DNA of 64,000 bases from Cyanidioschyzon merolae (Eukaryota): the NCBI GenBank assembly GCA_000091205.1, contig AP006502.2; one strand, given 5' to 3'. The position numbers and the translations under genes were made by a program. The notes under the pieces are model-generated. The model saw only the letters and a list, made by a program, of their open reading frames with translations, made no database searches and was not told the origin of the DNA. Below are positions 1-44,743 of this stretch, piece after piece. Within the stretch, counting starts at the first letter, position 1. Each line of letters begins with the position of its first letter.

Positions 1-1937
1 TTATAAGTGCGCTCCACGACATACCGCTCTACGTTGACCGAGAGAAGGGTATTTTAAATATGGTCGTTGAAATACCCCGCTGGACGAATGCCAAGTTTGA
101 GCTGCGGACGCGACTTCCCTTGGCGCCTATCATGCAAGACGAGAAGAAGGGAAAGTTACGGTTTGTGCAGAACGTCTACCCATACAAAGGGTATATCTGG
201 AACTATGGATGCTTTCCGCAGACATGGGAGGATCCAGAGCAAGTCCATATGGAGACGGGTGCCCTTGGTGATGGCGACCCGCTCGATGTCTGTGAGATCG
301 GCCAGCATATCGCACAGATCGGTTCGATCAAGCAGGTGAAGGTGCTCGGCGTGCTGGGTATGATCGACGAGGGAGAAATGGATTGGAAAGTTCTGGTGAT
401 GGATGTGCGAGACCCCAACGCCGACAACTTGAATGATGTTGACGATTTGTATCGCACAATTCCTGGTTTGGTGCACGCTACGTTTTCCTGGTTCCGCACA
501 TACAAGGTGCCCGATGGCAAGGAGGAGAATAAGTTTGCTTTTCGCGAACGCGTACAGAGCCGCCAATACGCCCTTGAAATTGTCGAGGAGTGCCACAGAA
601 GCTGGCAGCGACTTGTGTACGGAAAGGTGAAACACAGCAACCACCACTGTTCGAATACAACGCTGACTGATACACCACTCTACATGCCACCTGAAGAGGC
701 AGCGTCCGTGGTCGAGCAGGTTCGCACGGAACTGAGCGCAACCACCGAGAACACCGGGGATGCGGGAATGAAACATGGTGCTCTTGCGACACGATCTCTG
801 CGACCACTTCATCGTGAGGCCTCGATCAGTCAGCTGGAAAAATTCCACATGCCTGATTTCGCCCAGGAACTCACCAACGAATTCAATCAGCACGAGCGGT
901 CTCTCTTCCAGGCGCCTTCGGAGACGATCAAGCACTTTCTGACGGAGCAACAGCGACAATATCCACACGGTAGTTCAGAGCTCTCGCTCCTCATCACCGA
1001 ATATGGAACAGCAGCGAAGATCATCGCCTCGAACATCCGCGATCAACCGGAGGCACCATTTGAGTACATGCGACAAAACGCCGATCGACAGCTGCATACC
1101 GCGCTGGCGACTTCAGGCTTCTGTTGCATGATCTATTCAGCGCAAACCGGGCAAATGATGCCCTTGGACCTGGACGCTGGCATTGGCAACTATGTCGTGG
1201 TCTACACTGCACTCGTTGGTGAAGTCGGCGGCACGCTGGGCAGCCTTTTTTCAGTTTATTATCGCAAATCTTACTCGGGTCGCGAGGGAGATACTGCTGA
1301 TCTGTTGCAGCGAATTGGATACGAGCAGGTAGCAGCTGGGTATGCACTGTACTCTTCGTCTGTGCATCTGGTGATTAGCACAGGTCTTGGCGCGCATATC
1401 TTCTTTCTGGATGATATCAGCGGGCACTTTGTACTGCGACAGAAGTTTGTGCAGATTCCACCCCGAGGTCGTGTCTATTCAGTAGACATATCGAGTTTAC
1501 CAAAAGCGATTGAGGGCGTGCGCCGCTATCTCGCCCAGCTGGAGTCCTCGAATGCGTCCCGTGAAACGAAACATACAGCGCTGATGGACGGACCAGCACC
1601 TGGCAAAATCTTTCGTTACGAACACAATGTGGTGGGCAATTTTCACCGGATTCTGCGGCACGGTGGTATCTTGCTGATGCCGGGACCACGGACCAACGCT
1701 TTGGCAGACTTTTTGGGTGTTGCGGCGCCGCTTGCGTTCTTGGCGCGTCAAGCAGGCGGCAAAGCGAGTGTGGGTAAGCGCCCAGTCTTGGAGCTGAGTG
1801 CCTGGACCCTGGATATGCGCGTTCCGCTCTTCATTGGCAGTATGAGCGATGTGAGTGATCTGGAGGTGTGCATTCTCGGACATCCGGTTCCGGAACGCTC
1901 CATCGTTACCGCTTCAGAGACTGTCTCATATACGTGA
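1..1937 (+). CDS. Family-I soluble inorganic pyrophosphatase domain fused to a C-terminal FBPase-fold domain with a degenerate active site. 5'-partial: the frame is open to the window edge.
   Basis: Translating the frame upstream of the listed ATG(60) gives ...SALHDIPLYVDREKGILNMVVEIPRWTNAKFE..., which matches the PPase core HDIPLY / VVEIPRWTNAK. Other PPase motifs present are DGDPLDVCEIG, DEGEMDWKVLVMD and YKVPDGKEENKFAF. The C-terminal half aligns with fructose-1,6-bisphosphatase: TEQQRQYPHGSSELSLLITEYGTAAKIIASNIR, AAGYALYSSSVHLVISTGLGAHIFFLD, GGILLMPG and FLARQAGGKAS. The metal-binding DPLDGSSNID motif is replaced by TALVGEVGGTL, and SEE by SAQ. Confidence 0.8.
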   Translation, partial: ISALHDIPLYVDREKGILNMVVEIPRWTNAKFELRTRLPLAPIMQDEKKGKLRFVQNVYPYKGYIWNYGCFPQTWEDPEQVHMETGALGDGDPLDVCEIGQHIAQIGSIKQVKVLGVLGMIDEGEMDWKVLVMDVRDPNADNLNDVDDLYRTIPGLVHATFSWFRTYKVPDGKEENKFAFRERVQSRQYALEIVEECHRSWQRLVYGKVKHSNHHCSNTTLTDTPLYMPPEEAASVVEQVRTELSATTENTGDAGMKHGALATRSLRPLHREASISQLEKFHMPDFAQELTNEFNQHERSLFQAPSETIKHFLTEQQRQYPHGSSELSLLITEYGTAAKIIASNIRDQPEAPFEYMRQNADRQLHTALATSGFCCMIYSAQTGQMMPLDLDAGIGNYVVVYTALVGEVGGTLGSLFSVYYRKSYSGREGDTADLLQRIGYEQVAAGYALYSSSVHLVISTGLGAHIFFLDDISGHFVLRQKFVQIPPRGRVYSVDISSLPKAIEGVRRYLAQLESSNASRETKHTALMDGPAPGKIFRYEHNVVGNFHRILRHGGILLMPGPRTNALADFLGVAAPLAFLARQAGGKASVGKRPVLELSAWTLDMRVPLFIGSMSDVSDLEVCILGHPVPERSIVTASETVSYT

Positions 1938-2380: not shown

Positions 2381-5300
2381 TCACGATGTACCCGCTCCAT
2401 CGCGACCGCTGTCATCAGCGATACCTCCGGTCACATCGTCATCATCGTCAAGAGTCAGGTTGCCGAGGTCTACCTCGCGCGCCATGCTTGCCCGAGCTAT
2501 TTGCGCATAGATGCCATGAGCGCGCTCCATGAGTACGTAATGGGGTCCTTGCTCGACGACGTGTCCACTTTCGATGACACTAATCATGTCGGCAAAGTAG
2601 AGACTCTCGACGAGGTCGGCACGCAGCACGAAAACGACAGTGCGACCCGTGCAGATCGCTTTCAGGTCCAGTGCGACACCGTTCACCGTCATATCGAGCA
2701 ACGCCGCGTAACTCTCCGAGTCCAACAGAAGCATACTCGGATTACGGAGAAGGACGCGTGCAATGCCCAGCGCCTGCAACTGCGACGACGTGAAAAGCGC
2801 CTGTGCCGTTCTCGCTGATGGAACCATGGTCTGGTATCCGTTCGCAAGACGTAGAATCACCTCATGCATACCGACTAACGAGGCCGCACGGCGTACTTCC
2901 GCAAAGCATGTCCCAGTAGCACCAAAAGCGATGTTCTCGAAAACAGTCAGGCCGGCAATGAGACGGCTACCACGCCAGGGCACCAAGCCTATGGCAGCCG
3001 TCAGGGCCGCAGATGTGTAATCCTGCATCGGGTGCTCGCCAAGCATGATCCTGCCGCTGTCGGGGCGGCGCTTACCCGAAAGTAGCTCCAAAAGCAGTCG
3101 CTCCTCGCGTCGTTTCCGTAGAATGATACAATGGATCTGGTGATGTTCGATGGTGAGGTTCAGACTATGAAACACGTACTGCGCATAACGGCTGCCGATA
3201 CCATGCCGCGGGACCTTAGGATCGAGCGTATATGACTCCGCAAAAGAGCCGAACGGGGTTCCTGGGGACTGTGCGGAGGCGGGTGCGCTCCCGCTACGGC
3301 CACTGGTGGTTGACGAGACGCCGCGATCCTCTTCAAGAGGCGATGCGGTGGATGAGGCTTTCGATGCCCAGTCCTCAGGATCGTCCTTGACCGAGACATT
3401 ATCGAAAACAACGCGTACGCAGCGGTCGTCGACGCGCAAAACAGTTCCCAATCCTGCCTGACTAGCATCAACGATATCGAGCACGAAATCCAGGTACGCA
3501 TAGAGGTTCTGGCGTGCGTGCGAGTAACGCACCAGATTCTCCGTCATTCGAAGCAAGCTGATAATAAGCATGATGGCGAACAGAATGGCGGTTACTAGAC
3601 GGCCGCTTGAGCGATGCTTCGTTCTGGCAAGATGCCCGCCAATATAAATACCCAATACCGCGAAAATAGCGAGCACGAGGCCAAACGTCAGACCGCGTAG
3701 CAAGGACTGCAAGAGGTTCAGCCGCGCATCATGTTCACGTTCCACATCCGTAAACTCGTAAAGCCGTTGGAACTCCTTCTGGAACTGTTCTAGATAGACG
3801 ACGTTCGGCAGCGCAGCTCGGGACAGTTGCAGAAACTCACGAGCTTTCCGTGCTGCTTCTTCGTACCGCTGCTGGGCCCTGCGTGTAACGAACAGCTGGA
3901 GCATGCCCAGACCAGCAAGAATGGGCGTCGTGCCCAGAAGCACCAAAGTCAGAAACCAACTTTCAATGATACCGAAAATAAAGCTGCTGATAGCCTGCGC
4001 TGCGTACAAAGCGACACTCGACAGGTGCTCCACAGCGTCCAATACAAGTAGCTCCATTCGATCCAGTGTGTTCTGTTCGAAGAGCCAGCGATCGAGTCGA
4101 TCCGTGCCGACACCCGTTGTCAAAAGAAGCGCAGCAAACGACCAGAGACGGAGTCGGTAACGGACACGGCGACCAATCGTACCAAGCGAGCGACTCTGCC
4201 AGAGAACTACAAACGCAGCGGCACCGCTGATCACCCCGAATCCGATAAGGTAGCGATGAATGCTCGACACTGGGTTTCCAGCGATCACACCGTAAAAGAT
4301 CTGTGCCCAGTAATTCACGACGTGCCCGAAAAGGAACAGATACGCGGGAAAAATAACGCCAGATGCAAGGGCTGCCAACAACCCACCGACTGTCAACAGA
4401 GGTGCATTGAGGAGCCACTGACGCGGTGATAAGAGGTTCGCGATACTCTTCAGTTCTGCTAGATTGCGCTCAACGGTGTCCGAATCCACGGAGCACGCAC
4501 AGAGCGAAAATCCACAACACTGGAAGAGACCGCATCGGCGATTCCAGAGGGGTGGCAACGCTGCACTCATCGCAGGTTCGTCGGCAGAATCTCCATTCGC
4601 ATCATGCTGAGGTAAAGACTCTTCTGCACACTGTTTGGTGGCAGTCGAACTGGAACCAAGCGCCTTCTTCATCGATTCCGCCAGGGTGCGCGCGTACAGC
4701 GAGCCATCCGGGTAGATCCCGTAGACAAGCATCGCATAATAATCCATAAAAAATTCGCCGTGATCCGGCGAACTTCGCAACTTCTTGTTGAACACGTGTC
4801 TGAGGGCCTTGAACTTACCAAAGCCCCGCATGGAATCACCAGCTGGAAGCGACGTGGAAGCTTGCGCATCGCCTGGATATCGGCCAGCGGGCCCTGCAGA
4901 GCCAAAAGACGGCGATGTTTTGGGAAAGGCAGCCTGCATCCCCTGACGTGCTGCAGCTAACTGTTTCCCCGATGGATGTGGACCCTGCGCAGGTTGCGCC
5001 CCCGCAATATCGTCAACTGTAATCGCCACTGCGTCTTGGTCAACCAAACTCCGATTCATGGCGGCTTGAAAGGTCCCGTGTACAGCGTCGCTCGCTGTGG
5101 CAGGCGGCGTACTCTTGTTGAGATACTTGCGTGGAACGTAGGTTGGCGGCTCGTCTTCAGACGATGCGGAAGACAACGCCGAAGACGAGAGGTGTCCCGC
5201 CGAGCCTGTGTCCCCTGTATGAGCACCTGCGACAACGTTGTTTGCGGAAATAAGGCCAGTTCGAGGCGCGCTTTCAGACTGCGCACTGCCGCCGTCTGCA

Positions 5301-5704
5301 GCTGCTGCCGCCGAAGCTGTGCCTGCGACAACGTGTCTCTCGTCCGTACCACTCTGAGCTGCTGAAGAGCCACTGCTCTCAACTATGCTGAGTGCATTCT
5401 CGACAGCACGACCTTGAACAACACCAGCGGGTTCCATAGGGTTTCCGTGGGTCTCGAGATTAGCAGCTGCGCCGCTTCGTGAGCTCCCAGTCGACCGGGT
5501 GCTCCCAGCTGCGTTTGGCCTAGTAATATCCTCCCGTCGCTCCCCTGGACCATTACGGTTCGCATCCATAAAGTATCCAGTTCCCTTGTACGGATTTCCC
5601 GTGACCTCCACTGGACAATAGCACAAGGGGAACCCAACAGAGCGTTGCGTTTGTTCGCAACCTGGTGCTGCGGCGAAGAAACCGCGAGTACGAATCTTCT
5701 TCAT
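2381..5704 (-). CDS. ABC half-transporter-like protein: a low-complexity N-terminal region, a 6-TM ABCB-type transmembrane domain and a C-terminal nucleotide-binding domain with a degenerate Walker A. The true start is uncertain.
   Basis: 1107-aa ORF. TM helices are visible (e.g. GVIFPAYLFLFGHVVNYWAQIFYGV, LVLAIFAVLGIYIGG). The C-terminal NBD remnants are a signature-like FTSSQLQALGIARVLL, a Walker B LLLDSES and an H-loop-like HVVEQGPH. The Walker A position reads ILRKRREERLLLELLSGKRRPDSGRIMLGE, so there is no GxxGxGKS/T motif. Confidence 0.6.
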   Translation of the reverse strand: MKKIRTRGFFAAAPGCEQTQRSVGFPLCYCPVEVTGNPYKGTGYFMDANRNGPGERREDITRPNAAGSTRSTGSSRSGAAANLETHGNPMEPAGVVQGRAVENALSIVESSGSSAAQSGTDERHVVAGTASAAAAADGGSAQSESAPRTGLISANNVVAGAHTGDTGSAGHLSSSALSSASSEDEPPTYVPRKYLNKSTPPATASDAVHGTFQAAMNRSLVDQDAVAITVDDIAGAQPAQGPHPSGKQLAAARQGMQAAFPKTSPSFGSAGPAGRYPGDAQASTSLPAGDSMRGFGKFKALRHVFNKKLRSSPDHGEFFMDYYAMLVYGIYPDGSLYARTLAESMKKALGSSSTATKQCAEESLPQHDANGDSADEPAMSAALPPLWNRRCGLFQCCGFSLCACSVDSDTVERNLAELKSIANLLSPRQWLLNAPLLTVGGLLAALASGVIFPAYLFLFGHVVNYWAQIFYGVIAGNPVSSIHRYLIGFGVISGAAAFVVLWQSRSLGTIGRRVRYRLRLWSFAALLLTTGVGTDRLDRWLFEQNTLDRMELLVLDAVEHLSSVALYAAQAISSFIFGIIESWFLTLVLLGTTPILAGLGMLQLFVTRRAQQRYEEAARKAREFLQLSRAALPNVVYLEQFQKEFQRLYEFTDVEREHDARLNLLQSLLRGLTFGLVLAIFAVLGIYIGGHLARTKHRSSGRLVTAILFAIMLIISLLRMTENLVRYSHARQNLYAYLDFVLDIVDASQAGLGTVLRVDDRCVRVVFDNVSVKDDPEDWASKASSTASPLEEDRGVSSTTSGRSGSAPASAQSPGTPFGSFAESYTLDPKVPRHGIGSRYAQYVFHSLNLTIEHHQIHCIILRKRREERLLLELLSGKRRPDSGRIMLGEHPMQDYTSAALTAAIGLVPWRGSRLIAGLTVFENIAFGATGTCFAEVRRAASLVGMHEVILRLANGYQTMVPSARTAQALFTSSQLQALGIARVLLRNPSMLLLDSESYAALLDMTVNGVALDLKAICTGRTVVFVLRADLVESLYFADMISVIESGHVVEQGPHYVLMERAHGIYAQIARASMAREVDLGNLTLDDDDDVTGGIADDSGRDGAGTS

Positions 5705-8092: not shown

Positions 8093-9304
8093 TCAGACAC
8101 CAACAATCACTGGGACATGGTCGCCGCCCTGTTCAAGCACCACAGAGCGCGCTCGATGATACGCTTCTCCGTCGAGAGATACAAGTTGCGGTGGATCAAG
8201 CTTGATGCGTATCCACGAGCACTTGAAATATCGGCACGATTGATCGTGGATGTGCTGTCCTGACTCCAACTGGAACATGAACTGGGCCAGTCGGAGCCTT
8301 GATACACCGGCAGGCACCAACAGCACATCCATGCAGGCGTCGTGCGCGTTCGCCAACGGAGCGAACTGTGCCTGTGGCGAAGCGTGGGTAACGTTCATAA
8401 TCACAATGAGCACATACTCGCGTTGTGCAATTGTTTCCGTGAGTTCATCTGCAGTTCGCCATCCCATTTCGGATTGCGAATCACGAATCACGTGGCGATA
8501 CTCAATCGCAGCAGAGAAGACGCGCTTACGAAGAATATACCAGCCAGCTCCGATGTTGAAACGAATCTGTCCCAGGCAGCGCATCCGCTCCGTTCGGATG
8601 TCAAGGTCCGCCACCAAACCTATCGTCAGCGAAAGGAACGCATACCCATTGGAACGACCGTTCAAAGACGATCGCGAAGTCATACGTGACGACTCTGTGG
8701 AAACAGAGTCCGCCTCATCAGCCTCTTCACCGGAGTTGGAACGAGTTAGGAGCGGAGTGTTCTCGGAAGAGACAGCCTTTGGACGCCTCCTGAACCGCAG
8801 ACAACCACAACAACGGCGCTCTCGATAAGACTCCGTTTCTTTCGCCCAGGATTTCGCAGAAACATCCGTAATCTCGTAGTGAAAGGCGTCTAGGCGCTCG
8901 CAAACCCCACAGAGCTCGCCACGTGACGTGCACTGGTGCAAGAGCGTCCCTATACGCCGGGCGGCCTCCAAAGCATCAACGACACCGAACGAAGCGGCGA
9001 GTCCGTTTCCCGTGCCCAGCGGAATGATACCCAAAGGTACTTCTGTTCCATACAAAACGTTTGCGACCTGGTGGAAAGTACCGTCACCACCGACACAGAG
9101 GACTGCCAGGGGCTCGCTCGGCGCAAACACGGCAGCTCGGGTTGGCAGGTCATCAGGAAACTGGGTCCAGAACTCCTCTATTTCTAGAGAAGGCTCGGCT
9201 GCAAGTAAAGTACGCTTGACCTCCTCCCAACGGCGTTTGACAGCTTGAAAATTCTTGCCCCCGCTCCTGCTGTTAATTACGACAAACAGGCGTTTCGTTA
9301 CCAT
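8093..9304 (-). CDS. DAGK-catalytic-domain lipid kinase, sphingosine/LCB-kinase-like.
   Basis: The start is MVTKRLFVVINSRSGGKNFQA. It has LCVGGDGTFHQVANVL, a glycine-rich GIIPLGTGNGLAASFG and a C-terminal ...LVSLDGEAY. These are typical of the DAGK_cat / sphingosine-kinase C1-C5 blocks. Confidence 0.7.
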   Translation of the reverse strand: MVTKRLFVVINSRSGGKNFQAVKRRWEEVKRTLLAAEPSLEIEEFWTQFPDDLPTRAAVFAPSEPLAVLCVGGDGTFHQVANVLYGTEVPLGIIPLGTGNGLAASFGVVDALEAARRIGTLLHQCTSRGELCGVCERLDAFHYEITDVSAKSWAKETESYRERRCCGCLRFRRRPKAVSSENTPLLTRSNSGEEADEADSVSTESSRMTSRSSLNGRSNGYAFLSLTIGLVADLDIRTERMRCLGQIRFNIGAGWYILRKRVFSAAIEYRHVIRDSQSEMGWRTADELTETIAQREYVLIVIMNVTHASPQAQFAPLANAHDACMDVLLVPAGVSRLRLAQFMFQLESGQHIHDQSCRYFKCSWIRIKLDPPQLVSLDGEAYHRARSVVLEQGGDHVPVIVGV

Positions 9305-10318: not shown

Positions 10319-11986
10319 TCAGAGAACAAAGCGGCTTAGATCCGTTTTCAGCAGCATGCCACCAAGCGCATCGCGAACATTCATCACGTCAATGAGAACT
10401 CGTTGGCCTCGCATTTCCGGAGCCTCAAAGCTTATCGTTTCTATGATACGTTCCACAACCGTATGTAAACGACGTGCACCGATATTTTCCACCGTTGTGT
10501 TCACCTCTGCAGCAATCGCCGCCATTTCGTGAATAGCTGCATCCGTGAACTCAAGTTCGACGCCTTCGGTCCGAAGAAGTGCCACTTGTTGTTTCAGGAG
10601 CGAGTTCTCTGGTTCGGTGAGTATTCGGTACAGGTCCGCTTCGGTGAGACCTCTAAGCTCCACTCGAATCGGCAGACGACCTTGGAGCTCCGCCATGAGG
10701 TCACTAGGCTTACATTGATGAAAGGCTCCCGCAGCGACGAAGAGAATATGATCAGTATTCACGTTTCCGTACTTTGTGGAAACGGTGGTGCCTTCCAGAA
10801 GCGGCAATAGATCGCGCTGCACGCCCTCCGCCGAAGCATCCGCTCCGTGTCGGTAATGGCTTGGCGTACAGATCTTGTCGATTTCATCGAGAAAAACGAT
10901 ACCATCCTGTTCGGTAAGCTGAAGCGCCTGGCGGGTCAGGCTCTCATCCGAAAGTAAGCGCTCTGCTTCTGCCTCCTCGATGACGCGACGGGCATCCCGA
11001 ATTTTCATCCGCCGTTTGGAGGATGAATTCCCTCCAGCTCCGCTTCGCTGGACAGTAAAGATGCGATCAAGGCTGCGAATCATCTCCGTCATGCGCTCGG
11101 CACTGGCGTCACCGAGCTGCAGGAATCCCGGTCGATTCGAAAGCGGACGTGTTTCTTCGACCTCGATTTCGCGATCCTCCAAGGCACCTTTTCGCAGAAG
11201 ACTTCGGAAGGATTCACGGGTCGACTCGCGGGCTGCCGGACCGGTCAACTCATCGAGGATACGATCCTCCACGAGCTTGTCCAGTTCATTTTTGAGTCGC
11301 TTACGTTGTTTCTGTTTCACGAGAGAAATCGCGTTCTCGACCAAGTCTCGAATGATTTGATCCACATCACGTCCATGGAAACCAACTTCTGTGTATTTAG
11401 ACGCTTCAGTTTTCACGAACGGAGCGTCGACGAGCTTTGCAAGCCTTCGTGCGATCTCTGACTTGCCAACACCAGTGGGTCCGCACAGTAGAATGTTCTT
11501 AGGAGCAACCTCTTCCCGCAGTTCTGGAGGCAGCTGGTGGCGGCGCCAACGGTTTCGCAGTGCAATAGCCATGGCACGTTTTGCTTCCGTCTGACCAACA
11601 ATAAAGCGGTCTAGCTCCGCAACTACCGCACGAGGCGTAAGTGCTCCCGTAGCGTCCGGTTGTTCTGAGGGCGTCTCGGAGGTCGCAACAGAGTCGGGCT
11701 GGTGAAGCGACGAGAGGCTATCGTCTACGTTCACAGTGTGACGGTCACCAGAAGAGCATACGCTTCGTACACTCGTTCTGTACGTGAGTGAGACTGTTGA
11801 AGACGAAGGCCTTTGCAACGAAAAGCGATGTTGAGAAAACGAAGCAACGCTTCGTAGCCACAAGCGTTGCCTCGAAACGCTTCCATTGTGCTTGGTGAAC
11901 GTCCGGATGTAGCGAGTTATAGAAGAGAGTTCAGCTCTACTGTTTAAACGCATCTCTTGCGATAAACAGTAGCACACCTTCGGCAA
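10319..11986 (-). CDS. hslU: HslU AAA+ ATPase (ATP-dependent protease HslVU ATPase subunit), organellar type with an N-terminal presequence.
   Basis: TPRAVVAELDRFIVGQTEAKRAMAIALRNRWRR; Walker A NILLCGPTGVGKSEIARRLAKLVDAPFVKTEASKYTEVGFHGRDVD; Walker B GIVFLDEIDKI; C-terminal GRLPIRVELRGLTEADLYRILTEPENSLLKQQVALLRTEGVELEFTD...NIGARRLHTVVERI. An N-terminal ~100 aa Ser/Arg-rich extension precedes the conserved core. Confidence 0.85.
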   Translation of the reverse strand: MPKVCYCLSQEMRLNSRAELSSITRYIRTFTKHNGSVSRQRLWLRSVASFSQHRFSLQRPSSSTVSLTYRTSVRSVCSSGDRHTVNVDDSLSSLHQPDSVATSETPSEQPDATGALTPRAVVAELDRFIVGQTEAKRAMAIALRNRWRRHQLPPELREEVAPKNILLCGPTGVGKSEIARRLAKLVDAPFVKTEASKYTEVGFHGRDVDQIIRDLVENAISLVKQKQRKRLKNELDKLVEDRILDELTGPAARESTRESFRSLLRKGALEDREIEVEETRPLSNRPGFLQLGDASAERMTEMIRSLDRIFTVQRSGAGGNSSSKRRMKIRDARRVIEEAEAERLLSDESLTRQALQLTEQDGIVFLDEIDKICTPSHYRHGADASAEGVQRDLLPLLEGTTVSTKYGNVNTDHILFVAAGAFHQCKPSDLMAELQGRLPIRVELRGLTEADLYRILTEPENSLLKQQVALLRTEGVELEFTDAAIHEMAAIAAEVNTTVENIGARRLHTVVERIIETISFEAPEMRGQRVLIDVMNVRDALGGMLLKTDLSRFVL

Positions 11987-14893: not shown

Positions 14894-16264
14894 TTGCGTC
14901 GGTTTATCTCAGACATTTATGGATACAATGGACATTGCACATCTTGCCGTCTCCTGGCGACGGCTGGCAACGGCTCTGTCTGCGACAAACGGAACCCGTT
15001 CGAGCATCCGCGCTCCTTGCAGACTCAGAAGCATCTGATTTTGTACGTTACAGTTGCAATTCATCAACGGGCTTTTTGCTATGGTTGCTGCGTTATCCTT
15101 GCACGTTCATTCTCATTTTCCGACGTTTTCACGTCACTTGTAGAGCTTATGGAACTGGACGTGCCTCTTGATGCACAAACGCAGAAACACTGGCGCTCCT
15201 GTGAAAGGCGAGTTGCTGACGCTTTGCGGGTGCTGCAACACGGCGCACTGCGCGGGGAGCGGGATCTCGTTCACGCCATTATCTACCGCAATGCGAACCA
15301 GCACCACAAACACGCCTACTTCCAAGGGCTTCGAAGCGCAGTGCGGGCGCTGGATCGCTTGGACGCTGCGTTTGCTGCACAGAAAGGAAGCTTCGCTCGA
15401 GGAACTCTGCAACTTGATGAGAGCAACTGGCTTGCCGCCCTGGCTCAACTGGATCAGGTACTCATACAGCACCTGTACTCGCGGCAGGAGGTCCAAAAGC
15501 GGCCGCCGCAAGTCACACACCCGCACGGGACGAACGCCTCGTCAGCCCCGGCCCTGCAGTTGTCTTTGGAGACGATAGCAAACGCACTGGAGCCTTTGTT
15601 GGAGGTTGCTATTGAGTGGCTTGCAGTTGTGCGTCACCGACTGCGCATCAGTTTTAAACACGCTTGGCACCACTTGGTCCTGCGTGCGAATTTCCTAGCG
15701 CTGGGCATGGCCCTTGTGGCAGCTGCAGGTCGGCTGCACGCAATCGTAGAGCGGGCGATGGAGAGTCTGACACACGCCCGCTGCCATTTGCACTGGATTC
15801 GAAAAACGCGTCAGAAGCATGCTCGACATGCCAGTACTCGTGAAAAGCGTCCGCAACAGCACCCATCGCGATCAGCGCAAAAAGCTGATCAGTTGCGAGA
15901 GCCAGTCAGCTCTGGAAGGCAACAGAGGCACGCAGGCATCACGCGTTCAACCGGTGTCATCGTCACGGGTTCTATCGAGGCACATGCGAGGATGCGCAGC
16001 ACGAACGACGAACCTTTACATGCAGCTCCTTCTCTGTATCACGCGTTAGAGGCGACACGCTCGCGCACCTCCGAATGGAGCGCCGCCCCTAACGTTTTTT
16101 CGACCTCGCCTCCTGATCGCGCTGCACCGCAGCGGACTCGGGAAGAAGAGCCCGCAGAGACCATGCCGCGAAGCCATTCAGTAGACAGCCTTGATGAGAT
16201 ATTTGCAGCGGCGGAAGCGTCGGAGGCCGACAGTCTTGAGCACCTGAGGCGTTATATTGACTGA
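14894..16264 (+). CDS. Hypothetical protein (456-aa ORF; a likely start is the internal Met at ~15134, MELDVPL...). It lies inside the cassette bracketed by direct repeat A.
   Basis: It is the longest ORF in the 13.5-17.4 kb interval. The central part is non-repetitive and the C-terminus is Ser/Arg/Gln-rich. I recognise no family. Confidence 0.3.
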   Translation: MRRFISDIYGYNGHCTSCRLLATAGNGSVCDKRNPFEHPRSLQTQKHLILYVTVAIHQRAFCYGCCVILARSFSFSDVFTSLVELMELDVPLDAQTQKHWRSCERRVADALRVLQHGALRGERDLVHAIIYRNANQHHKHAYFQGLRSAVRALDRLDAAFAAQKGSFARGTLQLDESNWLAALAQLDQVLIQHLYSRQEVQKRPPQVTHPHGTNASSAPALQLSLETIANALEPLLEVAIEWLAVVRHRLRISFKHAWHHLVLRANFLALGMALVAAAGRLHAIVERAMESLTHARCHLHWIRKTRQKHARHASTREKRPQQHPSRSAQKADQLREPVSSGRQQRHAGITRSTGVIVTGSIEAHARMRSTNDEPLHAAPSLYHALEATRSRTSEWSAAPNVFSTSPPDRAAPQRTREEEPAETMPRSHSVDSLDEIFAAAEASEADSLEHLRRYID

Positions 16265-18696: not shown

Positions 18697-19515
18697 ATGT
18701 CGAGGTTTTTGTCCCGAATATGGACTCGGGACGTGCTGCGAGCTTTCTGGGTCCAAGACCGACGGGTTCTACACCGATGTCTAGCTCCCGCTTCGTGTCG
18801 GCAGTGGCAGCTGCAGGGCTTCGGTTCGCGCAAACTCACCGATACGGCAGCGCGCTCGAAGGAGGAAGCAGAGACCGCTGCAGGTGGAGCGCCCCATGCG
18901 CAAACTCAGAGCGAAGTTCTCTCAACTATTGAGGCGCTATTGTCGAAACCGTGGACTGGAGAGTTTGAGGCAAACCTTGTGCCACTGGAGCCTCACCTGG
19001 AACGAGCAGCAACCATCTTAGCCCGCGAACAGGCGGACTGGCAGAAAGTTCAAGTCGCTACCGGTCCAAGTCCAACCGCTGAGGCCCGAGCGTTTGTACA
19101 CGACCTCCATTTGCTGTTCCTCGTCAAGGAAATGGCCCCGACAGCGTCTTTACTTGCAGAAACCGCCCTGGACCTTTTACGTTTGCGTATGGATGAGACC
19201 GGTTTCCTTGGCAGCCAAGTCAAACCGTCCAAGTCACAGCTAGAAAGCGAGATCGAGGACACAGTTCGTGCCTATGAGGCAGCAACACGCCGTCTAGAAT
19301 CTGCTAAAGAGAAAGCGGTTCGGGATGCTCCTATCCGCGAGCCGATTTGGAACGAGGCCATACGAAAATGGGAACTGGATGTAGGCATCCACATCCTGCA
19401 GCTGAGGCAAACCATCAGCATAGAGGGATACAGTGAACGGTTCGGAGCGATTGCAGGGCATCGCATTGTTCCAGCTAGAGTGGTGTCCATCGAGAAATCT
19501 GACTCCACAGGCTGA
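18697..19515 (+). CDS. Hypothetical protein (272 aa).
   Basis: The ORF starts about 100 bp after repeat A copy 2. It has an N-terminal Arg/Ser-rich presequence-like segment followed by a non-repetitive, helix-rich sequence. No family recognised. Confidence 0.35.
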   Translation: MSRFLSRIWTRDVLRAFWVQDRRVLHRCLAPASCRQWQLQGFGSRKLTDTAARSKEEAETAAGGAPHAQTQSEVLSTIEALLSKPWTGEFEANLVPLEPHLERAATILAREQADWQKVQVATGPSPTAEARAFVHDLHLLFLVKEMAPTASLLAETALDLLRLRMDETGFLGSQVKPSKSQLESEIEDTVRAYEAATRRLESAKEKAVRDAPIREPIWNEAIRKWELDVGIHILQLRQTISIEGYSERFGAIAGHRIVPARVVSIEKSDSTG

Positions 19516-21071: not shown

Positions 21072-23489
21072 TCAGCACGCGCTGGAGCGCGTGCTCCAGT
21101 GCTCGTCCCACTCCCGAATGTACTGACTAGCCCTTGGTATATTGCAGCTGCCCAAAAGTTGGGCGACGGCATTTCGAAACCATTCCTGCGCCGAGACTGC
21201 GCTATCCGACGAGACAGAGTGCATTGCGCTGCACTGTTCGAGCGCTTCTCGCCAGGCTCTGTATAGCCGCTCACGCCATTGTCGTAGGCAGCTTTCCCAG
21301 GTGGCAGATATCGTCGCAGTCGCTGGTCCATCGAGTGTTGCAGCAGTGGCAAGAGTAGTAGCAGCATCAAGAGCAGCGTATCCTGCATCCGGCTCGAGCG
21401 CAGCAGACTTGGCGGCATCGTTCGAATGGCGTTGTCGTTGCAGCGGAGCAGTTGTAATCGAGGCAGCTTCGTTCCATTCTGCTCGCACGCGAGGCTTCAG
21501 CGGTGCGCCGCTCGGCAGGCACTCGACGGCGAGAAGCATCGTGAGCCATGCAGTCGCTCGCAGTTCGGGAGTGTCGTGCATCCAGTTATGGAACGGTGCT
21601 TCGAGCACCTGATAAAGTGCGCCTTCGAAAACGAGCGGTGTCGCCTCTGCAAGCAGTGGTGCCAAGTGTGCCATTCTGTCGGCAGTAACTGCCGCGAGCC
21701 TGTTCAGTATTTCCGTCAACTGTTCCGTGATTTGCACTTCGAAGCAATGACTTGTGAGTTTGGTGCGCAGCTCCTGTGCCCAGCGTTGCAGCTCATCAGC
21801 AATTCCTCGAAACGGTTGCGAATCACCGACGAGCGCGATGCACTGATCATAGAGCGTTGCTTGCGCCCCAACGGTAAGCTGTCCCAGTAGCTCGCAGTTG
21901 TGATGCCATAGACTCCAGCGCTCTGCAGTGACAGGGCCCTGCAACGCTGCGAATTCACCTGCCGACAGCGCCTCGGCAAATAGCGCGACGAGATGCCTCT
22001 GGAGCAGAATCTTCACTTTGGCGACGGATTGCTCCTGGCTGTCAGCAGTTTCGCATACTGCGCGCCAGCTGCGATGCTCTGCAGCGAAAGCCTTCCATTC
22101 GACAAGCTTGGCTGCGAGCGCTGCGAGCGACTCCCCCAGGCTCGACACATCATCCGGCTCTGAATCGAGTAGTCTGCGCTCAGATTCCGACAAAGAGCAA
22201 ACAGTGAGTGCATGCCGCAGCTCGCATTCAAGGCGGCGAAGATTCCGAATTTCCACCTCCAGCGCCGCAAGCCGAGTCCACTCCAGGGCCTGGAACAAGG
22301 GCCGGTGACGCAGTGCTGTGAATACCCGTCGCCAACGCTTCTCCTCTGCTCCAAATTCCGGTGTATGTTCGCGTAAAAGCCTCGAAAGATCCTGCAACTG
22401 TTCAGGAATATGCTCCACGTGCGTCAGCTGGCCCCAATCGAACGCCACCAATGTCGAGGGAGGCTCCAGCTCCGGGCTAGTAGTGCCAGCGGTCAGGTCG
22501 AGGGCGGGCCCTTCGAATGAGGTTAGCGTCCTATGCAACAAAGGTGGCGTCAGAATTCCCGCAAGTGCGTCCGTCCCGTTTTGTCTAGCGTTATTGACAG
22601 TCTGCTGCACAGCAACGCCATCAGAGACTTGATCCTGAGGCCCGGGCGAAGGCGACCGCCTCCGAAGAGCAGACGCTGACGAAGGCACCGGCTGGCTGCT
22701 TGCAGCGGCTGCGTCAAGAGGCAGACGTGCCCCTCCTTCGACGTCGACCGCAGCACCTTCATCTGCTGTGATGCCTTTGAGAGTGACAGGAGGTTCTCGT
22801 GCAGTGCTTTCCATGGTACCTGAGCTCATGACTTTGTCGGTCGTCGCTCGCTGACCCCGAAGCTGCAGCTCCGCAGCATAGCACTCTCGATAGCTATCCT
22901 GGAGCACCTGCACAAAGCGCGTTGCCTCAGCTAGGTCGCTCGGAGCACAAAATAAACAACTCCCATCGTTGAAGAGGAGTGTGAGCCTTGTTTTCGACTC
23001 CGTCGACTCTGAAACCCACTCAACTGCTCGTAGATCCCTGGCGTCCCAGCTTCGGGTGAGTAGCAGACGCTCGCCAGATAACTTGTGTAGGGCAAGCGTA
23101 GGCCGCTGTTTCGAAACACCCTGTCCTTTTTTAGAGGACCTGGTTAGTGCTAGAAATCGCTTTTTCTCTGTCTGCTTTCGCATTCTCTGAAGGAGGCGTC
23201 GCCCTGTGCTTTCCCACTCCACTCGTCGCAACTCGAGGACCGCAAGACATTCCTGGCCAACCTGAAGCGCCACCGCTCCGCTGACCTCTTTCTGAGGTTT
23301 TGAAGTACGATAAGTTTGCTCTGACTGGCTCATTCTCGAGATTGGAGGTTTCCCACTAAACACGCGTTGAACCGCTCTGCGGCCCAGACGTCTCGTGCTT
23401 GGTTCGCCTCCTGTCGAGGAGAAATCAAAGTCTGGCGGATGCCGGAACGTGTCCCGCACACCTGCATTGATCGCATTGTACCTCGACAT
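21072..23489 (-). CDS. Hypothetical protein (805 aa).
   Basis: Long non-repetitive ORF. Its N-terminal ~150 aa have a PH-like pattern (LALTRSSKKG...LLLTRSWDARDL..VEWV....TRLTLLFNDGSCLFCA). No confident family. Confidence 0.5.
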   Translation of the reverse strand: MSRYNAINAGVRDTFRHPPDFDFSSTGGEPSTRRLGRRAVQRVFSGKPPISRMSQSEQTYRTSKPQKEVSGAVALQVGQECLAVLELRRVEWESTGRRLLQRMRKQTEKKRFLALTRSSKKGQGVSKQRPTLALHKLSGERLLLTRSWDARDLRAVEWVSESTESKTRLTLLFNDGSCLFCAPSDLAEATRFVQVLQDSYRECYAAELQLRGQRATTDKVMSSGTMESTAREPPVTLKGITADEGAAVDVEGGARLPLDAAAASSQPVPSSASALRRRSPSPGPQDQVSDGVAVQQTVNNARQNGTDALAGILTPPLLHRTLTSFEGPALDLTAGTTSPELEPPSTLVAFDWGQLTHVEHIPEQLQDLSRLLREHTPEFGAEEKRWRRVFTALRHRPLFQALEWTRLAALEVEIRNLRRLECELRHALTVCSLSESERRLLDSEPDDVSSLGESLAALAAKLVEWKAFAAEHRSWRAVCETADSQEQSVAKVKILLQRHLVALFAEALSAGEFAALQGPVTAERWSLWHHNCELLGQLTVGAQATLYDQCIALVGDSQPFRGIADELQRWAQELRTKLTSHCFEVQITEQLTEILNRLAAVTADRMAHLAPLLAEATPLVFEGALYQVLEAPFHNWMHDTPELRATAWLTMLLAVECLPSGAPLKPRVRAEWNEAASITTAPLQRQRHSNDAAKSAALEPDAGYAALDAATTLATAATLDGPATATISATWESCLRQWRERLYRAWREALEQCSAMHSVSSDSAVSAQEWFRNAVAQLLGSCNIPRASQYIREWDEHWSTRSSAC

Positions 23490-23549: not shown

Positions 23550-25112
23550 TCAACCTTGAGTGCTTTGCTTTTTTGCCCTCACTTGGGCGGAAAAATCTGT
23601 ATGAGTTTCGCAACCGGCCAACGCGTCCTCCGACTTGCTTGTGTTGAAAGAGAAACGCTGCCCCCTGGAACCGTTTCTCGGCGAACGCGTAGGCCGTGCC
23701 CCAGACGAGACAGTTTCGGGATCCAGGGAAGGGGTTCGGAAGCTTCTAGCGTCGAAGTTTCCAGAATCACAGCGGTTTTCGCACAAACGCGGCTCACTTT
23801 GGGGCGGCAACCAACTCTGGCGGCGGCAGCACTTGCTGCAGCCAACAGCGAGAAAAGCCTCGACCAGCCCCGCGAGACAATCCACGACATAGTGGTGTCG
23901 AAGGAAAACCGCCGCCCAGGAGACCGATACCACGTAGGCCCATGAAACAGAGACAAGTGCGAAGAAAACCCGTCTTCTATGGCCACCTGCTGCTTGATTC
24001 CCGGAAACAAACGACTGCCCCTTGAAGGCGCTTGCCATCAGCGCGTACTTGCGGCAGGGCGTCATGGAAGTTATGAAGCGTCTCTGAGAATGCTGCCGTA
24101 TTGCATATTCAGTACATTTGATCGCCATCCAGGTGGCCGTGGCAACATGCAGCGATGGGAACGCCGCGAACACCCATAGGTTCCGTTTGAAAAGGGTAGA
24201 ATACAGAGGAAGCCCCAGCCACTCGTCGATCGCTTCGAGTCGCGCTGCCGAACCTGTTTGCCTCCGAGAATACCATCTGCGGGACTTTGCGTTTGTGGAT
24301 GCAGCACACTGTTGTGATGTTGGCCAGAATGCACCCGTTTCCTGGAGAACAAACCAGGGCGGGGCCGTTGGCCATACAATGTGCAGGATAATGGCTATAA
24401 AGTTCAGCCAACCGTACGAAGATAGCAAGTCAAGAGTAACGGTCCAGGTCGTGGGATCCAGCGATGTCGCCGACATCCTGGGATTCTTTGATGTGCCAGC
24501 AACAAGATACAGCAACAAGAGGAACGTGGCAGCTGGCACAAACGCATGCAGACTGTAGATGAAAGCAGCAAGCAACTCCGCTGTGTAAATATGACCCTGC
24601 GATTCCGTAGAATCATTCAGACGCGAACCGCAAAGCCAAAGCTGCATCGACATTGCACTACTCTGGTTTGGTGCCAGCAACCGAGTCTGATCGATCGTAG
24701 CGAACGGACGACGGTCTCGCGAAGTCTGCTCGATGAAAGCCCAGCTCATTTCATTTCCAGAGTCGCCCGTGTTCTGCAGTGCATGCATTCGATTCAGTTG
24801 CAAGGCACGTGTTCCTAAGGCGCTTGACAGTGACAGCATACGGATCAAAGCCCGATCCAACTTGGGGAGAAAACACAGATGTTGGACTGGCGGCCTACGC
24901 TGGGCAGGCACCACCACCCCGTAAAAGTTATAGATTAGCCACCATAATGTAAAGGGCAGAACTGCCCACAACAGATTTTTCCTTCTTGCACGAGAGTTTG
25001 AGCGTTTTTTTGATTGACTGGTAAAGCAAGCACGAGTGTCTGGCACCCGAGTCCGACGTATGTGATCCTCTTGCTCGGGCCGTGAAGTCTCCTCGCTCTC
25101 CAAACCTGCCAT
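23550..25112 (-). CDS. PAP2-superfamily membrane protein resembling inositol-phosphorylceramide synthase (AUR1) / sphingolipid synthase.
   Basis: Multi-TM ORF. It has a C3-like motif AFPSLHVATATWM (compare SFPSGH) and a C4 motif HYVVDCLAGLVEAFLA (compare HYxxD). The N-terminus is basic. Confidence 0.55.
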   Translation of the reverse strand: MAGLESEETSRPEQEDHIRRTRVPDTRACFTSQSKKRSNSRARRKNLLWAVLPFTLWWLIYNFYGVVVPAQRRPPVQHLCFLPKLDRALIRMLSLSSALGTRALQLNRMHALQNTGDSGNEMSWAFIEQTSRDRRPFATIDQTRLLAPNQSSAMSMQLWLCGSRLNDSTESQGHIYTAELLAAFIYSLHAFVPAATFLLLLYLVAGTSKNPRMSATSLDPTTWTVTLDLLSSYGWLNFIAIILHIVWPTAPPWFVLQETGAFWPTSQQCAASTNAKSRRWYSRRQTGSAARLEAIDEWLGLPLYSTLFKRNLWVFAAFPSLHVATATWMAIKCTEYAIRQHSQRRFITSMTPCRKYALMASAFKGQSFVSGNQAAGGHRRRVFFALVSVSWAYVVSVSWAAVFLRHHYVVDCLAGLVEAFLAVGCSKCCRRQSWLPPQSEPRLCENRCDSGNFDARSFRTPSLDPETVSSGARPTRSPRNGSRGQRFSFNTSKSEDALAGCETHTDFSAQVRAKKQSTQG

Positions 25113-27994: not shown

Positions 27995-30253
27995 ATGCCA
28001 AAGCAAAAGCTTAAGCTGCCGCGTGGGCCGCAAGGCCGGCTTCCATCATCCTCTACTGATCCAAACCGAGGTAACCGCATACCTGGAGGTGGCGGTTGGG
28101 GTCGAAGTCGCGCTACCGTTAAACGAATACGGATGTATGCTCGTCCCGCTTATGAGCGAGACCGCAACGGACGCATCCAGCATGATCGTGGCGACCTGAC
28201 GAGTTCGGTCGTGAAAGAACCCGGTGCGGGTCGAATCGCTCCAAATCGTCGTTGGTTTGGAAATACTCGTACAATTGACCAGGAGAGTCTCCAGACTTTT
28301 CGAGAGAGCATTTCAGGTGCAGAGCGCGATCCATACACGATAGTTCTGAGACAACGGCATCTACCGTGGACGCTCATCAAGGAAGGCATGGAAGCGAGAG
28401 ACGTTGAACGTTTTGAACATGCCGCAGGCAGGGCAAACCTGCGGTCGCATGCATTGGCGGAAGGCTCGGAAATGACAAGGGGAGTACGGTTCAAGTCCTC
28501 TCAGGCGCTGCTTCGTTTGGAGCCTTTCGCTGAAACATTTCACCAACGTCGCTGGAGAAAGCGACCGCGAATCGCCTTCGATAGTATAGAAGAACTGGCG
28601 GAAAGCGTTCGAGATACTGCCACAACTGCAGCCGCGGCCGCCGGTGCTGCTCAAGCCACCACTGCGGAGCCTGGCGCTGGCAGCGAAGAGCCGAGACCCG
28701 AGGCAGGCCCAGATACATTGCGATCACGCAGTCTGCCTCCAGTACCAGGAGCCGAACGGTCTACAGCAGGTTCATTGAAACAGCTTGCCTCGGAGCAGGT
28801 TCCTGAGCGCAGCATCGATGCACTGGGCAAGACGGCGTACACGAAAGGCCAAAGCCACCGCATCTGGTCGGAGTTGTACAAAGTCATAGATGCTTCCGAC
28901 GTGGTGCTGTTCGTGCTCGATGCTCGGGATCCACTCGGCACCCGTATACCGCTCATTGAAAATATGCTCCGCAAAGAGCATGCTCACAAACACTTGGCTT
29001 TCGTTCTGAACAAGTGCGACCTGGTGCCAAAACATGTCACTGCTGTCTGGTTACGTCTCCTGAGCCGTGAGTATCCCACCGTTGTTTTTCGTGCAAATGA
29101 CTGCAAACGCGCATTCGGGCGTGGAGCGCTCCTACAGCTACTCCGGCAGTTCGCGCGCCTGCATCGCAAAGATCGCCAGTCCATCACCTGCGGTCTCGTG
29201 GGCTACCCTAACGTTGGCAAATCGTCCATCATCAATGCTTTGCGGAAGGAGAAGGTGGTGCGAGCCGCCCCTATTCCCGGAGAGACCAAAGTCTGGCAAT
29301 ATGTAACCCTTTTCCGTCGTGTGTACCTCGTTGACTGCCCAGGGGTGGTGCACGCGCGCCTCGCTGGACACATGGACGTCTCTGACATGGTGCTTCGCGG
29401 TGTTGTTCGGATTGAGAGCCTCCGCGATGATGCGGAGCGGCATATACCGCGTCTGCTTGAACGAGTCAACCGACATCATCTCGAAGCTGTTTACCGAGTG
29501 AGCCTGGATGGATGCGACGCCGACGGTTTTCTCGACGCTATCGCCCGGGCTCGCGGCAAACTTCTTCCTGGCGGTGAGCCCGATCGCAACGCTGCAGCCA
29601 AACTGCTCATTCATGATTTCATTCTGGGTCGACTGCAATGGTACGTCGCACCGCCGGCGATGCCCTCCTCAGTGGCGAAGGCAAACGCAGTGCTCTCTCT
29701 GGACGGCAGCGCTCGCGCCTCTGTCATTGGTACGAACGCGGTTGAGGTGTCGTCCGCTGGCGACGATCGGAACTCGCAAATGCAACGCCATACAGGGAGC
29801 AATGCTGGCGTCTCGAGTCCCGGATCAGAAGCGCTTGACATGGACGAAAGACGAGCCCACTCTGGATCAGCGGCCACCCGCCCGCTGGTAGATGGAGCTG
29901 ATCTGCTCCTGCACGATCTACTAGCCGAACAGAGTTTCGATGAAGATGATGAGGCTCCTGAGGCGCTGTCTGTGTTTACGACAACGAATACTAGCCGAGA
30001 TACCAGCGCTGGAACGCAGTTCACACCGGATGCAGCGGATAGTACTGCGGGGACATCGTCACCAGTCCGAGTCTCTGAAACTGCCGAGCGGTCCATCCGA
30101 AAAGCCCGGAAAAAGTCAACATCAACGCGATCGAAGCGGCGTGCAGGTCGTCTTTCCAAGCGGTTGCGTCGGCTGGCAGAGTGGAATACGGAGCCCGTGC
30201 TGCAGGCAAATCTCCAACGGACATTGCAGAAAACCGAGCCCAGGGTCCATTAA
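27995..30253 (+). CDS. NOG2: Nucleolar GTPase Nog2/NGP1 (GNL2; circularly permuted YlqF/YawG-family GTPase) with a long Ser/Thr/Ala/Asp-rich, basic-tailed C-terminal extension.
   Basis: NRRWFGNTRTIDQESLQTFRESI...DPYTIVLRQRHLPWTLIKE; KGQSHRIWSELYKVIDASDVVLFVLDARDPLGTRIP; permuted order G4 HKHLAFVLNKCDLVP, then G1 GLVGYPNVGKSSIINALRKEKVVRAAPIPGETKVWQYVTL, then G3 YLVDCPGVV. This is colinear with yeast Nog2. Confidence 0.9.
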   Translation: MPKQKLKLPRGPQGRLPSSSTDPNRGNRIPGGGGWGRSRATVKRIRMYARPAYERDRNGRIQHDRGDLTSSVVKEPGAGRIAPNRRWFGNTRTIDQESLQTFRESISGAERDPYTIVLRQRHLPWTLIKEGMEARDVERFEHAAGRANLRSHALAEGSEMTRGVRFKSSQALLRLEPFAETFHQRRWRKRPRIAFDSIEELAESVRDTATTAAAAAGAAQATTAEPGAGSEEPRPEAGPDTLRSRSLPPVPGAERSTAGSLKQLASEQVPERSIDALGKTAYTKGQSHRIWSELYKVIDASDVVLFVLDARDPLGTRIPLIENMLRKEHAHKHLAFVLNKCDLVPKHVTAVWLRLLSREYPTVVFRANDCKRAFGRGALLQLLRQFARLHRKDRQSITCGLVGYPNVGKSSIINALRKEKVVRAAPIPGETKVWQYVTLFRRVYLVDCPGVVHARLAGHMDVSDMVLRGVVRIESLRDDAERHIPRLLERVNRHHLEAVYRVSLDGCDADGFLDAIARARGKLLPGGEPDRNAAAKLLIHDFILGRLQWYVAPPAMPSSVAKANAVLSLDGSARASVIGTNAVEVSSAGDDRNSQMQRHTGSNAGVSSPGSEALDMDERRAHSGSAATRPLVDGADLLLHDLLAEQSFDEDDEAPEALSVFTTTNTSRDTSAGTQFTPDAADSTAGTSSPVRVSETAERSIRKARKKSTSTRSKRRAGRLSKRLRRLAEWNTEPVLQANLQRTLQKTEPRVH

Positions 30254-44500: not shown

Positions 44501-44743
44501 GGCGCCTCTAGTCCGCGCGCTTCTCCACATGGTGCCTCAACAACGAGCCTACCCAAAGATAGCGACGAGTGGCCCGTCGTAACGCCGCACACTGGTGGAC
44601 GCGACGGCGAACCAAAGTCACCGCGGCACTGGCTCCGTTCGAAGCCATGTACAAAAGTCGGTCCCTGGCAGCACCAGGTGGATGCAAGTCTCATGACCGA
44701 TACACCGCTTCGAGAGTCCGCAGATCGCTCCGAATATCGCTAG
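41576..44743 (+). CDS. Myb-family transcription factor with three tandem Myb/SANT repeats (R1R2R3, c-Myb-like) and a long low-complexity C-terminal region.
   Basis: R1 [24 protein letters not shown]; R2 [47 protein letters not shown]; R3 [49 protein letters not shown]. These are followed by a Lys/Arg/Glu-rich coiled segment and then about 750 aa of Ser/Pro/Ala/Thr-rich sequence. Confidence 0.75.

Follow-up and report, generated by a model that had tools for sequence, protein, structure and literature searches.

The first 1,937 nucleotides of a 64,000-nucleotide stretch of Cyanidioschyzon merolae contig AP006502.2 (assembly GCA_000091205.1; the whole stretch is referred to as the window) contain the greater part of a nuclear gene for an inorganic pyrophosphatase (PPase) fused to a fructose-1,6-bisphosphatase (FBPase)-like domain. 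Frame 3 of the plus strand is free of stop codons from base 3 to the TGA at 1935–1937, a run of 644 codons that, by simple arithmetic with ~3/64 stops per codon, would stay open with a chance near 1e-14. The window has a GC content of ~54%, and its open reading frames (ORFs) are long and intron-free, both in keeping with C. merolae. The earliest ATG inside the window, at base 60, opens an ORF of 625 aa; in a near-identical environmental contig (L001), the true ATG is located 186 nt upstream of base 3 of the window and is preceded, 19 codons earlier, by an in-frame stop. The complete fusion protein consists of 706 aa, with codons 63–706 and the TGA (the 3′ 91%) carried by the window and the first 62 codons lying upstream of it. 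The same ORF, unchanged in length at 706 aa, is present on environmental contigs, and the window protein is identical at 644 of 644 positions to residues 63–706 of XP_005539167.1 from C. merolae 10D. An earlier note on this DNA, made from the sequence alone, had described one uninterrupted two-domain frame that continues upstream of the window; both points were borne out, the first by the 644-codon frame with three Pfam domains in a single chain and the second by the position of the ATG in L001.

Along the window protein, Pfam placed the Pyrophosphatase domain PF00719 at aa 20–202 (E = 1.7e-47), the FBPase N-terminal domain PF00316 at aa 360–480 (E = 4e-21, 75.9 bits) and FBPase_C, PF18913, at aa 485–623 (E = 2e-19, 70 bits). 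Alignments to PDB structures cover aa 1–230 with the PPase and aa 298 or 307 to 624 with the FBPase fold, so that the linker between the halves measures ~70 aa, as the earlier note had estimated. Other features of the fusion gene are given in Table 1.

The protein is already known under a name that describes this architecture: XP_005539167.1 (BAM83131.1; UniProt M1UXE4) is entered as ‘inorganic pyrophosphatase fused with fructose-1,6-bisphosphatase’, and orthologues such as that of Gracilaria domingensis bear the same database name. The impression conveyed by the earlier note that the architecture was non-standard and unrecorded was thus mistaken, since the exact protein stands in RefSeq and GenBank as a fusion and the arrangement is common in red algae and glaucophytes. 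The search for orthologous fusions that the same note had proposed returned ~50 proteins with the PF00719, PF00316 and PF18913 architecture, 50–83% identical to the window protein. Carriers span five red-algal classes, with Cyanidiococcus, Cyanidium and two species of Galdieria in the Cyanidiophyceae, Porphyra and Pyropia in the Bangiophyceae, Gracilaria and Agarophyton in the Florideophyceae, and Porphyridium and Rhodosorus besides; they also include Rhodelphis limneticus, which is related to red algae but does not photosynthesise, and the two glaucophytes Cyanophora and Cyanoptyche. As a rule, Rhodophyta, Rhodelphis and Glaucophyta carry a PPase fused with an FBPase-like domain. The orthologues share the three-part architecture, and although their names imply FBPase activity, the residue analysis set out below argues against it. 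A full-text literature search whose coverage left out most subscription journals found no publication on a PPase–FBPase fusion, no functional study, and no database name or paper describing the FBPase half as a family-wide pseudo-enzyme.

Several family members derive from transcripts (Porphyridium, Rhodosorus, Agarophyton, Porphyra, Rhodelphis and Cyanoptyche, from MMETSP, Trinity and TSA assemblies), and the fusion is therefore not an artefact of gene models. Single mRNAs do span both halves, as a check for a single transcript should find, although those observed come from other species and from de novo transcriptomes. That two neighbouring genes have been merged through a missed stop, a missed intron or an assembly error is an a priori possibility, and a 70-codon linker would remain open by chance in ~3–4% of cases (simple arithmetic). 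Its probability is nevertheless negligible, given that the fusion recurs in independent genomes and de novo transcriptomes, that the linker holds a conserved motif and that environmental contigs carry the same 706-aa ORF.

An exhaustive HMMER search with the FBPase-like half against 1.84 billion cluster representatives recovered approximately six family-level representatives, followed by a clear score gap to ordinary FBPases, which marks the family as discrete. Stand-alone or green-lineage members of the FBPase-like family were absent from these 1.84 billion representatives. The longer HMMER matches that were checked proved to have unrelated architectures, namely a tandem FBPase, a PRY–FBPase protein and a separate degenerate FBPase fusion from Tetraselmis. 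A 401-aa entry from Cyanidiococcus yangmingshanensis (P0039) contains the FBPase-like half only and is called ‘inorganic pyrophosphatase’ by NCBI and ‘fructose-bisphosphatase’ by UniProt. The entry probably reflects a gene model that was cut short, and UniProt has probably given an incorrect enzyme name to a domain devoid of catalytic residues.

The N-terminal half has every sequence hallmark of an active family I PPase. PF00719 scored 161.5 bits against a cut-off of 23.5, with the whole profile (1–153) covered, and a PDB search matched aa 1–230 to residues 26–256 of Saccharomyces cerevisiae IPP1 (PDB 1E9G/1E6A; E = 4e-89). The pairwise alignment to IPP1 is free of gaps (residues 26–255, E = 2e-90), with the yeast number equal to the window number plus 25. 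The half is of the eukaryotic type represented by IPP1 and human PPA1, and all 14 active-site residues of the yeast enzyme are present, namely E23, K31, E33, R53, Y64, Y68, D90, D92, D95, D122, D127, K129, Y167 and K168 (yeast E48, K56, E58, R78, Y89, Y93, D115, D117, D120, D147, D152, K154, Y192 and K193), in agreement with the intact hallmark motifs seen by the earlier note. Among 48 aligned family sequences, every member covering these positions keeps all 14 residues. IPP1 stops ~30 residues after the domain, whereas the C. merolae protein continues with the 70-aa linker and a 340-aa FBPase-like domain. With just 25–30 residues ahead of the PPase core, the Galdieria and Rhodosorus orthologues have no space for a transit peptide, and the fusion protein is therefore probably cytosolic.

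The C-terminal half shares the two-lobed fold of class I FBPases (E. coli Fbp, PDB 2GQ1; mammalian FBP1 and FBP2) along its full length. It aligned end to end with human FBP2 and E. coli Fbp in PDB searches (aa 298/307–624, E = 1e-30 to 1e-32; best for E. coli Fbp, aa 307–624, at 9e-33), and the structural motifs GxYxVxxxPL, VAAGY, GGI and AGG are common to both groups. In an AlphaFold2 model, this half has a predicted local distance difference test score (pLDDT) of ~90, and Foldseek gave template-modelling (TM) scores of 0.80–0.87 to FBPases, normalised to the target. The full-length FBPase fold that the earlier note had placed after the linker was upheld by the two Pfam domains and by these structural matches. 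The best class 1 FBPase model of NCBIfam, NF006778, scored 178 bits against a cut-off of 368. Outside the family, the closest matches are bacterial class I FBPases with 33–35% identity; a bacterial origin is not claimed, as the PDB scores to E. coli, human and plant enzymes are too close. An adjacent cysteine pair at aa 374–375 (nt 1122–1127; ‘CC’ in SGFCCMIYS) lies just before the former SEE motif. C374 occurs in at least 90% of family members and C375 is invariant; only C375 has a counterpart in human FBP2 (C92).

Unlike class I FBPases, the window protein has lost the metal ligands and most of the substrate ligands (mammalian numbering is used for FBPase residues). The dynamic catalytic loop 52–72, including D68, is deleted here and in all 54 family sequences. 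D74, the general-base residue, is replaced by R and is variable across the family, E97 and E98, the acidic pair that provides metal ligands and a general base, are replaced by A and Q, and D118 and D121 by T and V in a metal/1-phosphate loop that also carries a 4-residue deletion. The replacements reported by the earlier note, SAQ for SEE at aa 379–381 and TALVGEVGGTL for the DPLDGSSNID block at aa 402–412, are exact. None of D74, E97, E98, D118 and D121 is retained in any of the 54 sequences. The 1-phosphate ligands S123, S124 and R276 read E, V and D in the window protein, and the 6-phosphate ligands N212, Y215, Y264 and K274 read D, S, M and L; family-wide, L takes the place of K274 in 50 of 54 members, L or M that of Y264, and D that of N212. 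E280 is V in the window protein and is lost throughout the Cyanidiales clade. The only substrate-phosphate ligands kept are Y244 and R243 (here R538). Within the signature region at nt 1692–1739, the gene encodes TNALADFLGVAAPLAF where FBPase has GKLRLLYECNPMAF.

Judged by its defining catalytic features, the FBPase-like half is predicted not to be an FBPase, and it is not filed as one here because the fold is present while those features fail. It thus appears to be a pseudo-enzyme descended from class I FBPase. The catalytic loss is common to red algae, Rhodelphis and glaucophytes and therefore predates their split. The arguments against FBPase activity mean that red-algal metabolic reconstructions should not count this gene as an FBPase, a point of practical weight since the database names invite the transfer of an Enzyme Commission number implying that activity.

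A half that still acts as a hydrolase, on a new substrate or with a new catalytic arrangement, would make the protein a bifunctional enzyme. The fold is complete and its conservation strong, most non-cyanidialean members have E280 together with a basic residue at 276, and the family has invariant polar residues of its own (H322, H475, D430, D433, R437 and C375, window numbering), all of which would suit such an activity. However, four of the five acidic metal ligands are missing in 54 of 54 sequences and the fifth, E280, is lost in the Cyanidiales including the window gene; no member has the catalytic loop, and L, L/M and V now stand in the 6-phosphate pocket. The former active-site positions, moreover, are conserved no better than the domain average, with position E98 hypervariable across the family, a pattern that a functioning active centre should not show. 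With the former active site unconserved, a new catalytic activity is unlikely, and we consider the bifunctional enzyme as a whole very improbable.

To describe constraint along the chain, we computed pN, the proportion of non-synonymous sites that differ, against an 83%-identical relative (L004); because of saturation at synonymous sites (pS, the synonymous counterpart, ~0.75), this comparison is informative only for pN and its between-domain ratio. The PPase half had a pN of 0.049 and is 66–77% identical between C. merolae and other red-algal classes and glaucophytes. The FBPase-like half had a pN of 0.092, with 52–56% identity to other red-algal classes and 45–48% to glaucophytes. For the N-terminal extension and the linker, the values were 0.305 and 0.394, respectively, the linker being ~25% identical to other red algae. 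In an alignment of 48 sequences, the FBPase-like half has more than 50 invariant columns, among them H322, the stretch S324–S328, K339, N396, Y397, R421–S423, D430, D433, R437 and H475. The most conserved elements of its N-terminal domain are QRxxPHGS(N/S)(D/E)LSLL (aa 317–330), K339 and GNY (aa 395–397), followed by YYRKS...GD..DLLQR.G.EQVAAGY (aa 419–447), and the family-specific polar residues named above are invariant.

Within this half, constraint has shifted. The positions of the former adenosine monophosphate (AMP) site have a mean entropy of 0.34, compared with 0.85 for the domain as a whole; equal conservation was reached by 2 of 1000 random sets, a frequency that overstates independence because positions 26–31 are contiguous. 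The former metal and 1-phosphate positions have a mean entropy of 1.08 and the former 6-phosphate positions 1.02, neither being conserved above background. Of three residues that belong to the C1–C4 interface and allosteric relay of mammalian FBPase, R22 and K42 are kept in all members, and an invariant His stands in place of E192. The dead FBPase-like domain is under strong purifying selection that is focused away from the old active site, and the pattern shows that a pocket or interface has been conserved around the former AMP site, the best conserved region of the domain, which also caps helix H2. Of the two options left by the earlier note, a pseudo-enzyme or a module with a new substrate, the first is clearly favoured, because the former active-site positions are no more conserved than background, whereas the former AMP-site region is.

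The same data bear on the idea that the FBPase-like half is a decaying, functionless remnant of a once bifunctional protein. The absence of the catalytic residues would be expected of a relic. The lineages that bear the fusion diverged more than 1 billion years ago, however, and all have kept it, with more than 50 invariant columns, 52–56% cross-class identity and a pN four times below that of the adjoining linker. These conservation and selection data contradict the relic, which is effectively refuted and to which we assign an extremely low probability.

The linker has a pLDDT below 50 over aa 248–282 in the AlphaFold2 model. Its sole conserved stretch is a short island with the family consensus L-G-R-S-x-S-W-L-D-M-T, read as LHREASISQLEKFHMPDF in the window protein and followed immediately, in most red algae, by a conserved HIPPPEF stretch. 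A pattern of a hydrophobic residue at −5, a basic residue at −3 or −4, Ser at 0 and a hydrophobic residue at +4, in line with the AMPK/SnRK1-type consensus (Ser or Thr at 0), is matched in 43 of 48 members, and in the window protein by L269, R271, S274 and L278. The glaucophyte and Rhodelphis linkers do not match it. S274, which is S336 of the full-length protein, is a candidate regulatory phosphosite.

Taken together, we regard the protein as being, with good probability, an active, probably cytosolic PPase that carries a non-catalytic, FBPase-derived module for regulation or assembly. The N-terminal half would be a competent eukaryote-type family I soluble PPase that hydrolyses pyrophosphate (PPi). 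The constraint retained by the other half is concentrated on the former AMP-site and helix H1–H2 region, which in true FBPases also forms the C1–C4 tetramer interface and the allosteric relay. The FBPase-derived module might then tune PPase activity by determining how the PPase oligomerises, by sensing a small ligand, or by both; a second input could come from the flexible linker, through phosphorylation of its conserved AMPK/SnRK1-like serine. Soluble family I PPases are usually seen as unregulated housekeeping enzymes. If the proposal is true, the fusion would represent a rare built-in control of cytosolic PPi through a permanently attached, dead but conserved FBPase module.

Several points weigh against this reading, besides the contiguity of positions 26–31. 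The lists of AMP-site and interface residues are transferred from pig and human FBPase structures. By alignment, the AMP-site positions T27, G28, E29, T31, K112, Y113 and R140 read S, S, E, S, N, Y and then R or Y; the equivalence of R140 depends on the aligner, with phmmer pairing it with the invariant R421 and MAFFT and hmmalign with Y420. K112 is N also in AMP-insensitive chloroplast FBPases. Because of the N at 112 and the unstable pairing of R140, AMP binding by the FBPase-like half is doubtful, and the domain as an AMP sensor was dropped as a proposal. The conservation of helices H1–H2 could be purely structural. E280 is present in 42 of 54 members and K at position 276 in most non-cyanidialean members, so that these may retain a residual anion site. 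Finally, the AlphaFold2 model had a predicted TM score of 0.56 with no usable packing between the domains, and the model was poor for the N-terminally truncated PPase half.

A special case of the non-catalytic module would be docking, in which the dead domain keeps FBPase-type interfaces and co-assembles with a genuine cytosolic FBPase, tethering the PPase to it. The two enzymes would then catalyse phosphate-releasing steps on the way from triose phosphate to uridine diphosphate glucose (UDP-glucose) and floridean starch. Pseudo-enzymes often act through active paralogues, R22, K42 and R243, which belong to the interface and relay, vary little or not at all, and the fusion is limited to Rhodophyta, Rhodelphis and Glaucophyta, lineages with cytosolic UDP-glucose-based glucan, green-lineage members being absent from the exhaustive HMMER search. 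Against docking, E192, the partner of K42 in FBPases, is here an invariant His, so that the interface is remodelled and may be specific for self-association. We judge docking to be unlikely.

The non-catalytic module that we favour can be placed in a metabolic setting. In red algae and glaucophytes, storage glucan is built from UDP-glucose within the cytosol. PPi removal and fructose-1,6-bisphosphate hydrolysis are plausibly two phosphate-releasing steps on one cytosolic route, and the distribution of the fusion corresponds to these lineages. Much more tentatively, and with only a modest chance of being right in full, a remodelled allosteric pocket and tetramer interface and the linker phosphoserine might make a normally constitutive cytosolic PPase a switch for energy or carbon status that gates PPi removal and with it UDP-glucose, floridoside and floridean-starch synthesis; the fusion would then be an ancient invention of the Archaeplastida, retained by red algae, Rhodelphis and glaucophytes but lost in the green lineage, where starch synthesis became plastidial. 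The fusion could help to account for what drives carbohydrate storage from cytosolic UDP-glucose in red algae and glaucophytes. Since genes of C. merolae can be altered by homologous recombination, these hypotheses are directly testable.

Comparable arrangements of a housekeeping PPase core with a non-catalytic domain able to impose regulation or oligomerisation are found in the CBS-domain family II PPases, which are regulated by adenine nucleotides, and in the trypanosomatid acidocalcisomal VSP1, an EF-hand domain with a family I PPase (PDB 5CUY) that was among the PDB matches of the PPase half. Unlike in these proteins, the accessory domain of the fusion is a C-terminal FBPase fold, and its regulatory role is hypothetical; a Pfam scan of the window protein found no CBS or EF-hand domain. 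A plant protein in which FAD synthetase is combined with an inactivated FAD pyrophosphatase (PMC9678776) is alike in joining an active enzyme to a degenerate, metabolically related hydrolase, but the folds and the pathway differ, and it serves as a conceptual analogue only.

The fusion gene is followed by a convergent neighbour on the minus strand (2381–5704) encoding a 1107-aa ABC transporter (PF00664 and PF00005). Near-identical contigs and the 83%-identical relative have this gene in the same downstream position. On the upstream side of the fusion gene are a gene with a release-factor domain (PF00472, RF-1) and one for a glyoxalase II-type lactamase_B protein. The recurrence of the ABC transporter neighbour, together with these upstream genes, indicates that local synteny is conserved. 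Genes assigned by Pfam further along the window are included in Table 1; the long ORFs at 14894–16264 (+), 18697–19515 (+) and 21072–23489 (−) had no Pfam match at E <= 1e-5.

Table 1 Features of the fusion gene and other genes assigned in the window (aa, residues of the window protein).
Feature	Position	Strand	Basis
Partial coding sequence of the PPase/FBPase-like fusion (3′ 1935 nt of coding sequence)	3..1937	+	Open frame; 100% identity to XP_005539167.1 residues 63–706
Family I PPase domain, aa 1–230	3..692	+	PF00719; ungapped IPP1 alignment
Inter-domain linker, aa 231–300	693..902	+	Low conservation, predicted disorder
Conserved linker island LHREASISQL, aa 269–278	807..836	+	Linker alignment
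FBPase-like N-terminal (‘AMP’) domain, aa 301–480	903..1442	+	PF00316, PDB alignment
‘SAQ’ replacing S96-E97-E98, aa 379–381	1137..1145	+	Alignment to FBPases
‘TALVGEVGGTL’ replacing D118-P-L-D121-G-S-S-N-I-D, aa 402–412	1206..1238	+	Alignment to FBPases
FBPase-like C-terminal (‘FBP’) domain, aa 485–625	1455..1877	+	PF18913, 70 bits
C-terminal tail GHPVPERSIVTASETVSYT	1878..1934	+	Conserved within Cyanidioschyzon-like strains; pN 0.024 against the 83%-identical relative
DAG-kinase/YegS-like protein	8093–9304	−	Pfam
AAA_2 ATPase	10319–11986	−	Pfam
PAP2-like protein	23550–25112	−	Pfam
NGP1-type GTPase	27995–30253	+	Pfam
DEAD-box SPB4-like helicase	35438–37588	−	Pfam
Myb protein	41576–44743	+	Pfam

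Related architectures were encountered outside the family. In the green alga Tetraselmis striata, a 658-aa protein (P0366) carries a different, weakly scoring FBPase-like C-terminal domain behind a 340-aa region with no Pfam match. By eye, this domain is partly degenerate, with VVVDPLMGADGLD and RSRLVHRGNPLSF in place of canonical motifs, and the protein may be an independent fusion with an FBPase-derived pseudo-enzyme. Metagenome proteins of ~700–766 aa (P0230 cluster) consist of two FBPase copies in tandem, the first with SGADED for the SEE pair and the second canonical in appearance. Similarly, two proteins of 532–602 aa from JGI metagenomes (P0051 and P0052) contain two family I PPase domains per chain and are the next-best matches after the fusion family.

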